A stretch of DNA of 64,000 nucleotides from Methanobacteriota archaeon (GCA_002720275.1 PBHR01000023.1:21600-85599); one strand, 5' to 3'. Numbered from the stretch's first letter, positions 11,843 through 52,358 are shown. Notes: generated by a model not told the origin, from the sequence alone. A program made the numbers and translations.

Positions 11843-13492
11843 TCAACCCTTTTGCCATGCTTTAATTCTTTTAACAATCGCAACCGTTTGCTCAAGATCA
11901 TATTTTTTATTTTCAAATACAAATTTAACTAAAACCGGATCCTTAATCATCTCTTGTAATTCTTGAGCGGGCATACGATCAAATTCCTCACGAGATAATG
12001 CGTTTAAATTTCTAACCCTCGATAAAAATACTTGTTTTATTTTATTTGTTCTCGTGTAATAACCATACCTTTTTGCATCCCCAAATCCATAATAAATTAT
12101 ATTAAAAATATGCCTCCAAGGTTCAGGATCTGTTTTCTTAATTAACACTGCTTCAAATGCTAAAAATAGCAATATAAACAACAATAACATTCCAATTCCA
12201 TCGCCTGTCAAATAAACTAACAAAAAGTAAATTAAATTATAAGCATCCGTAAATAAAACATTTTGGCTATGTCTACTTTCATCAAAAATCACCATTGCGT
12301 CACTACTCGCTACAATCGCTTCTTTATTTGTGAAATTATTCGCAGTTAAAACGGATTCTGCAATAACATCTAAAGCCCACTTTCTATTATCATTCTCTGG
12401 GATATTTGTAATTGATTTGCCATCCTCGTCAAATTCTCCAGAATTTGCAGATTCAAAACTATATACTGCATTAATTAAAGCACTACCGTCACTAATAAAA
12501 TAAATTCTTCCAGCACTAGAATCTGAACAATCGGAAGAATCACAGGTTTCAATATAAACATCAAAGGGTCCTTGTGAATCTGCCTCTGATTGCGCTGTTT
12601 CAGTTTCAAGAGTTATTTTTCCATCATTATTCAAATCTAAATAAGATTGAGGACTAGAACGACCTACTGCTTCATAGTAAGAAAAATCACCTGAAAATTC
12701 AATTGACTCAAATGCAGACGGGGCATTAAGTAATAAATTGTAATCATGATGATACTCTATCATTTTACTTGTTGAATTATAATGATGAGCACATAAACCT
12801 GCTTCTTCTTTTGTAGCAAATGTAATTTCACTTTCGGCCCATCTTGAACATGGATGCATTCCTGTTCCTGTAGGATCTGTTCCCTGATGCCACCTTGAAT
12901 GACCAATATGAAATTCATCTGAATTTTCCCAATCTGTATGGTTTTGACTTATGTTCATCCATACATAGTTGTAATCTAATTCAACTGCATATTCGTCATC
13001 ATAGAGCCTATGGTTACTATAACTAATTCCAACTGCATCTGCAAGGCCACTTGAATAACCAAAATCATCTAAAACAATTACCGTACCACCTCTAGAAACA
13101 AAGTTCATAATAGCTGAAATTTCTGAAGTACTATACCCTTCGGGTTCACTAAAACTAATAAATGAAGAATCAGAACCTATTGAAGGTAATGAAAATGTAT
13201 CTTTTTCTACACCACTTATTACAAATGTAGAATTTGTCGGGTTTTCTATTTCATTTAACAATAAAGGACTTGAAACCAAACTTTTCGTATTAATTCCTAA
13301 ATCAGATATTTCTTTCCTAAATTCTGAAATGTCATCCCAATCGTTATCATAAGCAGAAAGTTGCTTTGTATTTCCTAAATTTACATAACTTGAGAGTAAA
13401 AGAAAAAGAAGAAATAATAGAGCCACATAAAAACTAGAAATTAATGCACGGCGTTGATATTTTCTGAAACTCTTTCTAACCAACATTAGCAC
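11843..13492 (-). CDS. membrane-anchored protein with a large extracytoplasmic domain (DUF4350-like)
   Basis: Has an N-terminal TM, a ~400-aa N-x-S/T-rich domain, a C-proximal TM pair and a cytoplasmic tail. Its position directly upstream of DUF58 matches the archaeal DUF4350-DUF58 arrangement. The family call is tentative. Confidence 0.55.
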   Translation of the reverse strand: MLMLVRKSFRKYQRRALISSFYVALLFLLFLLLSSYVNLGNTKQLSAYDNDWDDISEFRKEISDLGINTKSLVSSPLLLNEIENPTNSTFVISGVEKDTFSLPSIGSDSSFISFSEPEGYSTSEISAIMNFVSRGGTVIVLDDFGYSSGLADAVGISYSNHRLYDDEYAVELDYNYVWMNISQNHTDWENSDEFHIGHSRWHQGTDPTGTGMHPCSRWAESEITFATKEEAGLCAHHYNSTSKMIEYHHDYNLLLNAPSAFESIEFSGDFSYYEAVGRSSPQSYLDLNNDGKITLETETAQSEADSQGPFDVYIETCDSSDCSDSSAGRIYFISDGSALINAVYSFESANSGEFDEDGKSITNIPENDNRKWALDVIAESVLTANNFTNKEAIVASSDAMVIFDESRHSQNVLFTDAYNLIYFLLVYLTGDGIGMLLLFILLFLAFEAVLIKKTDPEPWRHIFNIIYYGFGDAKRYGYYTRTNKIKQVFLSRVRNLNALSREEFDRMPAQELQEMIKDPVLVKFVFENKKYDLEQTVAIVKRIKAWQKG

Positions 13493-13559
13493 CCAGCGCT
13501 AAGCGCTAACCGTGCGACGGTATTGACTGCCTTAATACGCTTACTGGGTCGTGATTACA

Positions 13560-13805
13560 CTACCTTCTTAAAAAAATAGACCCTTCTAACCTATCAATTT
13601 CACTCGGAGGTACTTGAACAATATTATCTTTAGCAGTCCAAGGTAATTTAGTTGAATCGAGTCCTTTTTCTAATTTAACACAAATAAATTCAACATTACC
13701 ATCATCATAATTTATATGTATTTCAGTAACAACGCCAAGTAATTCTTTACTTTTATCAAATACTTCCCTGCCTACGAGTTCATATCCGAAAACTGTAACA
13801 CTAAT
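13560..13805 (-). CDS. PRC-barrel domain protein with a putative non-canonical ATT start
   Basis: Not in the ORF track. An 84-codon frame is open directly after the CDC48 TGA and in the same frame, with no ATG/GTG/TTG anywhere in it. It translates as ...ISVTVFGYELVGREVFDKSKELLGVVTEIHINYDDGNVEFICVKLEKG..., a PRC-barrel pattern. GAGGTGA overlaps the CDC48 stop, 4 nt before the ATT at 13805-13803. Confidence 0.55.
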   Translation of the reverse strand: MSVTVFGYELVGREVFDKSKELLGVVTEIHINYDDGNVEFICVKLEKGLDSTKLPWTAKDNIVQVPPSEIDRLEGSIFLRR

Positions 13806-13814
13806 ATTCTCACC

Positions 13815-16067
13815 TCAAACTGATTCCATGCCTCTTTGTGTATCCTTACCTCTACGAACAGTACTTAAACCACTAACTAGTAAAGATTCCATTTTCTTAT
13901 AATATTCTAACATATCATCGGTCACAGTAGGCCTAACCATATTCAAAGCCTTTTCAAAATGTGCCTTTGTCACCGTTTTCTTAGACTCCCTCATTGCTGT
14001 CAATGCTGCTTCTCTACATACTGATTCAACATCAGCACCAGTAAATCCTTCCATTTTTTTAGATATGTCTCCAATATTAAATTTACCTAAAGGCATCCCC
14101 TCACAATGAATTTTGAAAATTTCTCTTATCGCCTTAGCATCTGGAGGAGGTACATGTAAAACTCTTTCAAACCTACCACTTCTAATCAATGCAGGATCTA
14201 TCATCTCGGGTCTATTTGTAGCAGCAACAACAATAACACCATCCAAAGATTCTATTCCATCCATACTAGCAAGTAATTGATTTACCACCCTGTTACCAGA
14301 CTGAGTTCCACCCCCATCCATCCCTCTAGAGGACCTTGAATGAGCAATACTTTCGAATTCATCCAAGAAAATTATAGATGGTGATGCTTGTTTAGCCTTC
14401 TTGAAAATTTCACGAATTCCTCTTTCTGATTCACCGACCCATTTACTAATCATCTCAGGTCCTTTAATTGAAATGAAATTCGCTTTAGCCTCATTTGCTA
14501 TTGCCTTAGCTAGCAATGTTTTTCCTGTTCCTGGTGCCCCAAATAATACAATTCCTCTAGGTGGTTTAATTCCAAAATGATCAAATAATTCGGGTTTTGT
14601 TAATGGCCATTCGACACTTTCTTTAAGTCTATTTTTAATTTCTTCCAATCCGCCAACTTTATCCCAACCTATTTCAGGAATCTCAACATAAATTTCTCTT
14701 AAAGCACTAGGTTCAACTTCCCTTATTGCTAATTTAAAATCATCCATAATTACTTCCATTTTTTCAAGGACCTCTGGAGGAATTACTTCGGCATCCAAAT
14801 CAATCTCTGGAAGATATCTTCTTAATGCCTTCATCGCAGCTTCTCTAACTAATGCTGAAACATCTGCTCCCACAAAGCCATAAGTATTTTCTAAAATCCA
14901 TTCAATATCAAAATCATCACTTAGGGGCATTCCCCTCGTGTGTACATCTACGATTTCAGCTCTACCATTTCTATCTGGAACTCCAACTTCTATTTCTCTA
15001 TCAAATCTACCTGGTCTACGTAAAGCAGGATCTATTGCATCTCTACGATTTGTTGCACCAATAACAACAATATTATCACGGCCTTGCATTCCGTCCATCA
15101 ATGTTAACAATTGAGCAACTACTCTTCGTTCAACTTCTCCTGTTACATCTTCTCTTTTTGGTGCAATACTATCTAATTCATCAACAAAAACTATTGCAGG
15201 GGAATTTTCAGCAGCATCATCAAAAATTTCTCTAAGTTGTTTTTCAGATTCACCATAATATTTACTTATTATTTCAGGGCCATTAATTGATTTAAAATGA
15301 GCATTTGTTTCTGTTGCTACAGCTTTAGCAATCATAGTTTTACCCGTTCCAGGAGGGCCATGAAGCAAAACTCCTTTTGGAGGACTAATACCTAATCTAC
15401 GAAATAATTCCGGATGTTTTAAAGGCAACTCAATCATTTCTCTAACTTTTTGTAATTGATTTCCTATTCCTCCAATGTCTTCATAAGTTATTCCTTCTGA
15501 GTCTGCAGAAGATTCTTCATCAACCTGTTCATCTTTAATGACGATTTCAGTTTCTGGTAAAACTTGAACTATCCCCTTAGGGGTCGTAGAACGAACTGCA
15601 AATGGCAATGTCTCTGCAAATAAGGTAATTCCTGGAATAAATATTCTATCTCCTGCAACTACTGGTCTCTTGTTCAAACCTCTTCTTGCAAAACCTTCAA
15701 TATTTGGACCAAATTGCATTGCTGATGGTTTATTTTTACTTTGTTTATTTACCATAACCGGTGAAAGTACTAACTTTTTACAAGGAATTGCTTCTACCTT
15801 TCTAATTTCGACTTTGTCTCCTAAAGATACTCCCGCATTTTTCCTAACGATTCCGTCAATTCTTACAATATCCATTTTACTATCTTCGGGTCGACTTCTC
15901 CAATATGTCGCTGCAGTCATTCCCGTTTCCCCTTTAATTTCAATAATATCTCCCGGTTTTAGGCCAAGTTCATTGTCACTTGAAATTCTCGCTCTTCCAA
16001 AACCTACATCACTTGGTATTGCTTTAGCTATTCTTAACTTTAGAACATCCGAACCTTTAGTAGCCAT
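13815..16067 (-). CDS. cdc48: CDC48/VCP-type AAA+ ATPase (two AAA domains)
   Basis: Has an N-terminal CDC48 N-domain-like region, two Walker A motifs (GPPGTGKT and GAPGTGKT) and two DExx Walker B motifs, in 750 aa. Confidence 0.95.
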
Positions 16068-52166: not shown

Positions 52167-52358
52167 CTATTTAATTCCACCTTTAACATAATGTCGTGTC
52201 CATTTAACCCTTCTAGGGTTTCTATTCAAATTAACCATGTTTTTTCTAGCCTTAGAACTTTTAAACCAAAGTACCGTTCCATCTCTTTTAACAAACATTA
52301 AACCCGTTCCAGGTTCAATCTCTTCTCCTGAGAAATTGCATATTCGGCGTTCAGGAAT
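52167..52358 (-). CDS. rpl24e: 50S ribosomal protein L24e (eL24) with a putative ATT start
   Basis: Not in the ORF track. The minus-strand frame reads (I)[56 protein letters not shown], which matches the L24e pattern. It sits in the expected slot between rps28e and ndk. No ATG/GTG/TTG precedes the conserved Cys, and GGAGGT lies 7 nt upstream of the ATT at 52358. Confidence 0.8.

Follow-up and report, generated by a model that had tools for sequence, protein, structure and literature searches.

The window analysed here is a stretch of 64,000 nucleotides (nt) on contig C23 of a Methanobacteriota archaeon (GCA_002720275.1, PBHR01000023.1:21600-85599). The source genome, G000, is a metagenome-assembled genome (MAG) of 1.8 Mb in 53 contigs, 82% complete and with a GC content of about 33%. 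Proteins at least 90% identical to its ribosomal protein L24e bear the name 'Candidatus Poseidoniales archaeon' in NCBI nr. On the minus strand of the window, cdc48 (13815-16067) encodes a CDC48/VAT-type double AAA+ ATPase of 750 residues, and is directly followed by a PRC-barrel gene of 81 codons plus TAG (13560-13805). According to our comparison of related genomes, the two genes form a conserved pair, and the PRC-barrel protein is very probably made as a separate product of 81 residues, whose translation would start at an AUU behind a Shine-Dalgarno (SD) sequence that overlaps the UGA of cdc48.

The upstream gene of the pair is assigned from the ORF list, Pfam and NCBIfam. Its product contains CDC48_N, CDC48_2 and two AAA domains in Pfam and scores 961 bits against TIGR01243 in NCBIfam (cut-off 803), i.e. 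it has the N domain and the two AAA modules of the CDC48/VAT AAA+ proteins and lies above the family cut-off. The junction with the PRC gene reads, on the minus strand, ATG GAA TCA GTT TGA GGT GAG AAT ATT AGT GTT ACA GTT TTC GGA TAT GAA. Translation of 13560-16067 gives ...GMESV, the stop, GENISVTVFGYELVGREVFDKSKELLGVV...IFLRR and a second stop, with 84 open codons between the TGA and the TAG at 13562-13560. A stop-to-stop scan of this open reading frame (ORF) in the source genome finds no in-frame ATG, GTG or TTG. The G and A of the cdc48 stop (TGA, 13815-13817) are also the first two bases of the SD, GAGGTGA (13810-13816), which is followed by a 4-nt spacer, GAAT (13806-13809), and the ATT start codon (13803-13805). 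A first-pass annotation of the window had listed the TGA, the 84 open codons, the TAG, the lack of ATG, GTG and TTG, the PRC barrel and the SD four nucleotides before an ATT, and all of these details were borne out.

The 84 residues of the open frame match the Pfam PRC family (PF05239) with an E-value of 4.2e-7 and 30.3 bits, above the cut-off of 21.2, and the orthologues in all eight genomes of the genus (G000 to G007) also score above it. Altogether, 60 out of 61 related genomes, from 23 genera, have the PRC protein, and the comparison covers 59 relatives of the source genome. Within the genus, TGA-GGTGA is present in all eight genomes, so that GAGGTGA is identical throughout. It is followed by 4-5 nt and then by the start codon, ATT in seven genomes and ATC in one (G003). 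No canonical start exists anywhere in the PRC ORF of G000 and G002, and in the other congeners canonical codons appear only from codon 21 of 81 onward, are not conserved, and all lie downstream of the invariant F6 and E9.

Outside the genus we tallied the codon aligned at the N-terminus, 3-5 codons before an invariant phenylalanine, in 52 genomes from 22 other genera. The homologous start codon is ATG in 45, TTG in four, GTG in two and CTG in one, i.e. a canonical start in 51 of the 52. The N-termini read M/L-PTTFGRE in the other genera versus I-S-V/I-T-V-FGYE in the genus. This alignment establishes a real PRC gene without a canonical start, in which ATT or ATC stands at the normal SD distance and at the position of the orthologues' ATG. 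AUU initiation was one of the explanations put forward in the first-pass annotation, and it is strongly supported by the 59 relatives. The same annotation had proposed aligning the region downstream of cdc48 to see if the codon and the frame are kept: ATT or ATC is indeed retained throughout the genus, with ATG mostly elsewhere, but the frame relation varies. The GC content at the PRC locus is lowest in the genus, 34-37% compared with 38-61% in the others, which fits AT-biased mutation as the source of ATG-to-ATT changes. As a separate observation, the cdc48-linked PRC gene of G046 (locus L016) has CTG where its congener G038 (L018) has TTG; an alternative start in this gene is a GTG that falls within the SD, in frame and three codons before the CTG.

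The variation in frame bears directly on a second proposal, that read-through of the UGA yields a CDC48-PRC fusion and that the PRC domain is produced in this way. The frames of the two genes do coincide in G000, G001, G002, G004 and G006, where a 9-nt spacer, GGTGAGAAT or GGTGATCAT, precedes the ATT; in the source genome only GGT GAG AAT lies between the TGA and the ATT. One ENA gene model even translates the TGA as tryptophan and reads MESVWGENITITVFGYE.... The in-frame relation in these five species is explained by the geometry of the junction, since the TGA (3 nt), GGTGA (5 nt) and 4 nt add up to 12. In the other three genomes the spacer is 10 nt long (GGTGAGATAA-ATT in G005 and G007, GGTGAGTTAA-ATC in G003), the PRC gene is in the +1 frame relative to cdc48, and an in-frame TAA stands immediately before the ATT or ATC. 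A fusion by read-through is therefore impossible there. Between this TAA and the invariant phenylalanine there are only the codons ATT/ATC, AGT/AGC, ATT, ACT/ACA and GTT.

The same picture is seen at a larger scale. We surveyed gene order and frame offset at the 27 Poseidoniales loci with enough flanking sequence. The PRC gene lies directly downstream of cdc48 in all 27, with an offset of 0, +1 or +2 and a spacer of 5-113 nt. The three codons from the TGA to the ATT differ among congeners by 'non-synonymous' changes (GAG AAT to GAT CAT) and by an indel, like a spacer and unlike the ORF. No tRNA with a UGA-reading UCA anticodon was found in the source genome, where TGA is a common stop that terminates 375 of 1240 long ORFs (30%). 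Nor is there a stable structure downstream of the stop, and no Rfam element was found across 13300-14000. Programmed read-through would be expected to keep the frame across relatives and to be accompanied by a stimulatory structure or a suppressor tRNA, and none of these was found. As a conserved mechanism the fusion is refuted by the +1 frame and the TAA in three of the eight congeners, together with the three offsets in the order, and we consider it highly improbable as the source of the PRC domain.

An assembly error had also been suggested: a normal ATG could have been lost, or the frame displaced, in sequencing or assembly. In its favour, the genome is a MAG in 53 contigs, 82% complete, with many N positions elsewhere. 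The eight genus assemblies, however, all have ATT or ATC here although their synonymous sites differ in many places, and the public titles of three give different isolate names, IN961, UBA596 and EAC30. A genus-wide ATT in place of ATG is also found in two other genes, those for S27e and a tetratricopeptide repeat (TPR) protein, described below. Because eight separate assemblies agree, three of them under different isolate names, we regard an error as excluded for practical purposes.

The ATT could also mark a gene that has lost its start codon and is decaying, or is an untranslated remnant, in this genus. The lack of a canonical start would fit this, as would the presence of a second PRC-barrel gene in the genome. 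That gene encodes 99 residues at G000 C7:20238-20537 (plus strand), between the genes for L15e and an RNase Z-like metallo-beta-lactamase, and a second copy is found in seven of the eight congeners. The cdc48-linked gene shows no sign of decay. It has exactly 81 codons in all eight genomes, and the ratio of non-synonymous to synonymous substitution rates (dN/dS) is 0.05-0.41 in the 28 pairs of genus orthologues, at dS values up to more than 1, i.e. by its substitution pattern the gene is under purifying selection. The residues that are invariant across the order (F6, E9, D17, G24, G36, L54-P55-W56, P66 and L79) are all retained, and the SD and its spacing are conserved. A remnant is thus very unlikely.

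If the PRC gene is translated, its start could lie at another non-canonical codon further downstream, codons 3-5 (GTT, ACA or ATT) being candidates, or on a separate leaderless transcript. Codon 3 is ATT in six of the eight species, and residues 1-4 are disordered in the structural model, both of which agree with a later start. However, codon 3 is GTT in G000 and G001, and only codon 1 is ATT or ATC in all eight genomes. Codon 1 is also the one at the modal SD spacing of 4-5 nt, and it aligns within one codon with the Met or Leu start of the orthologues. As to a leaderless transcript, a sigma-70-type scan was no richer in promoters than shuffled sequence, though this consensus does not cover archaeal promoters. 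We give a downstream or leaderless start very little chance, and keep the AUU at 13803-13805 as the predicted start.

The AlphaFold2 model of the protein, with a predicted local distance difference test (pLDDT) score of 84 and a predicted template modelling (pTM) score of 0.73, is a seven-stranded barrel. The best Foldseek matches are the PRC domains of the cell-division proteins CdpB1 and CdpB2 of Archaeoglobus fulgidus (8ONW, 8QZO), relatives of the CdpB of Haloferax, with TM-scores of 0.77-0.78 normalised by the query and 0.82 normalised by the target. They are followed by MTH1859 (1PM3), reaction-centre H subunits and RimM. The model and these matches agree with the small all-beta barrel of the PRC fold. 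The protein has the same single-domain fold as CdpB1 and CdpB2, with a root-mean-square deviation of about 2 Å, but only 18% identity, and with its two PRC-barrel genes the source genome resembles the CdpB1/CdpB2 pair. Its similarity to MTH1859, an uncharacterised protein, is about as high, and the profile E-values are close (1.5e-7 for CdpB, 4e-7 for MTH1859). No link of the PRC protein to SepF or FtsZ genes was seen. The protein is therefore filed as a PRC barrel, with no assignment to the CdpB class. Because the pairing with cdc48 is conserved and tightly coupled, we infer a role as a partner or adaptor of CDC48.

The site at the end of cdc48 makes a plausible ribosome-binding site. GAGGTGA is complementary over 7 nt to the 3' end of 16S rRNA, ..GGATCACCTCCT, of the congener G003, and many other genera have an SD of the GGTG type at the equivalent position. 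In the source genome, the SD-bearing members of a set of 461 unambiguous ATG genes peak at spacings of 4 and 6 nt, of which 4 is the commonest, as at the PRC gene. The spacers of the congeners are GAAT, TCAT, GATAA and GTTAA, with the 1-nt indel falling here, and this variation is what would be expected of non-coding sequence. Folding of the start region gives a minimum free energy of -4.1 kcal/mol, less stable than in 198 of 200 shuffles (z=+1.9), and the site should therefore be accessible. CAU is the anticodon of the initiator tRNA, which also has the usual GGG/CCC anticodon stem and is of the ordinary kind. An odd initiator tRNA or a UGA-decoding tRNA as an explanation was excluded by the tRNA survey. 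The consensus scan for terminators, run together with that for sigma-70-type promoters, gave nothing above shuffled sequence. Downstream of the PRC gene a GC-richer spacer of 67 nt (13493-13559) separates it from a DUF4350-like gene; the folding of this spacer is not more stable than that of shuffled sequence (z=0.31), a weak hairpin is its only terminator-like element, and Rfam gives no match.

To place the ATT in context we tallied SD-led starts across the source genome with a crude gene caller, counting codons 4-6 nt behind an SD of at least 6 nt and at most 8 codons from an upstream in-frame stop. The tally gives 86 ATG, 12 TTG, 8 ATT and 8 GTG, and any other codon occurs at most three times. 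A simpler count of the codons that follow each GGTGA in the genome was dropped, since GGT-GAN within genes creates a 3-nt periodicity. The end of an upstream gene lies within 20 nt of the start in 7 of the 8 ATT candidates and in 68 of the 86 SD-led ATG genes (79%), and the idea that ATT starts are specially tied to translational coupling was rejected on these numbers.

Several genes show the same kind of start, and from the comparison of congeners the ATT of the PRC gene is one of several near-cognate starts in the genus. The gene for S27e (PF01667; G000 C43:10818-11003, minus strand; loci L034-L039) has an ATT behind TAA-GGTGATAAT, i.e. with the geometry of the PRC gene. ATT is the start in each of the six genus genomes with an S27e gene, against ATG or GTG in 24 other genomes. 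The gene for L24e (PF01246) lies in the window itself, at 52167-52358 on the minus strand. AGGAGGT lies 7 nt ahead of its ATT, which itself comes 1 nt past the TAA of an upstream S28e-like gene, and no canonical start occurs until codon 24 of this 63-residue protein. At this one codon position there is ATT in G000 and G001, TTG in G004 and G006 and ATG in the four remaining congeners, with ATG, GTG or TTG elsewhere. The TPR-repeat gene (G000 C22:20711-21712, minus strand; L182-L188) has ATT in all seven congeners holding it; in three of these an in-frame stop abuts the ATT, and in G000 no canonical start comes until 25 codons downstream.

Other near-cognate codons are found as well. The gene for geranylgeranylglyceryl phosphate (GGGP) synthase of the PcrB family (G000 C32:7496-8332, minus strand; L163-L168) has ATA behind GGGGGTGAT in G000, G004 and G005, and ATG in G003 and G007. 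In the gene for the initiation factor aIF2-gamma (G000 C5:65079-66380, minus strand; L093-L122) no ATG, GTG or TTG precedes the GHVDHGKT P-loop. The codon that is ATG in the family's other genera is CTG in each of the seven congeners. Three additional genera (L100, L114 and L121) have an in-frame stop 1-5 codons ahead of the CTG and no canonical start in the interval. For an initiation-factor gene this would be a putative CUG start. The gene for aIF1 itself begins with a regular ATG in all six genus genomes that yielded it, which rules out a near-cognate start there. Scattered N positions occur within genes on many contigs of the MAG (C13, C31, C32 and others), for example in an HflX-like gene at C13:4432-5832, and limit start-codon calls there.

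Taken further, these genes could point to a widened start repertoire, in which AUU, AUC, AUA and CUG are regular starts for several percent of the SD-led genes. The CUG of aIF2-gamma, which as a factor brings in the initiator tRNA, would then act as a feedback sensor of initiation stringency, as an archaeal counterpart of the bacterial infC AUU and of the poor context of eukaryotic eIF1. We consider this wider proposal rather doubtful.

For the PRC gene itself the following course of events can be proposed. The two genes are very probably carried on one transcript, and GAGGTGA, overlapping the UGA of cdc48, would position a ribosome with the AUU four nucleotides further on. Met-tRNAi (CAU) would read the AUU as a near-cognate codon, pairing at two of the three positions, and the product would start with methionine. 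Ribosomes that finish cdc48 may contribute to initiation on the PRC gene by coupling, across a gap of 9-10 nt between stop and start. Re-initiation after termination on cdc48 is plausible, and is not separable from de novo initiation directed by the SD. On the evolutionary side, the ancestor of this low-GC Poseidoniales genus would have swapped ATG for ATT, which was then kept in the eight sampled species, with ATC now in one of them. A weak start codon might in principle hold the PRC protein below the level of CDC48. As two ribosomal proteins use AUU, an AUU behind a strong SD is arguably not very inefficient in this lineage, and the change from ATG to ATT may therefore have been nearly neutral.

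Some points weigh against this account. The support for AUU initiation is wholly comparative, and the organism is uncultured. Trace read-through of the UGA may occur in the five species where the frames coincide. To our knowledge ATC, the codon of G003, is undocumented as a start in archaea. Finally, the proximity to an upstream gene is shared by most SD-led ATG genes, as given above, and this coupling context is thus not specific to ATT.

In Escherichia coli, infC (encoding IF3) and pcnB start at AUU. The PRC gene resembles them in being a conserved gene without ATG, GTG or TTG, with an AUU behind an SD and an initiator tRNA that would tolerate a third-position mismatch. It differs in that start selection in archaea uses aIF1, aIF1A and aIF2 in place of IF3, and in that a PRC-barrel protein offers no obvious logic for autoregulation. 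Unlike infC and pcnB, its start also belongs to a group of near-cognate starts fixed in one genus, of which two are those of ribosomal protein genes.

The arrangement of the two genes has precedents. Many archaeal PRC-barrel genes adjoin Cdc48 genes, their function being untested, and a role in division does not extend to every stand-alone PRC barrel (Zhao et al., bioRxiv 10.1101/2023.03.28.534520). As in those neighbourhoods, a stand-alone PRC-barrel gene lies here directly beside a gene for a Cdc48-family ATPase. The pairing in 27 of 27 Poseidoniales loci goes beyond that work, which does not take up the tight overlap of stop and SD or the non-canonical start. The functional interest that the first-pass annotation saw in a CDC48-linked PRC protein thus holds in so far as the pairing is real, but the association had already been published. 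The overlap of a stop codon with the SD of the next co-directional gene is a known arrangement (PMC2784483) and, when the spacer is very short, a typical feature of pairs under translational coupling. The cdc48-PRC junction is an ordinary instance of it except for the ATT as downstream start.

Near-cognate starts are treated as marginal in the archaeal literature. They are described as something that aIF1 discriminates against (PMC6237735), and a ribosome-profiling study in Haloferax left near-cognate sites out of consideration in order to keep false positives down (PMC7261190). In the literature searched we found no description of conserved AUU starts in Marine Group II. Here, near-cognate starts appear to be fixed genus-wide and stable for a long time, in highly expressed ribosomal protein genes as well as in that for aIF2-gamma. 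This fixation argues that initiation at AUU or CUG can be reasonably efficient in some archaea.

For the PRC gene the result is mainly one of annotation. Gene callers limited to ATG, GTG and TTG miss or truncate it, as had been noted for the ORF track of the window, but NCBI nr already holds a correct 81-residue model, MSVTVFGYELVGRE..., for the window contig and two congeners (MAK05212.1, MAO69832.1). Since this model exists and Cdc48-PRC pairs have been published, the novelty is modest. The ENA and JGI models of the PRC cluster are truncated to 60-71 residues or read the TGA as tryptophan (MESVWGENITI...). Work on Cdc48 and PRC proteins in Marine Group II should use the 81-residue protein, not a fusion. 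The predicted N-terminal peptide of the AUU-started protein, translated from 13805 on the minus strand, is (M)SVTVFGYELVGR, and that of congeners (M)SITVFGYELVGR.

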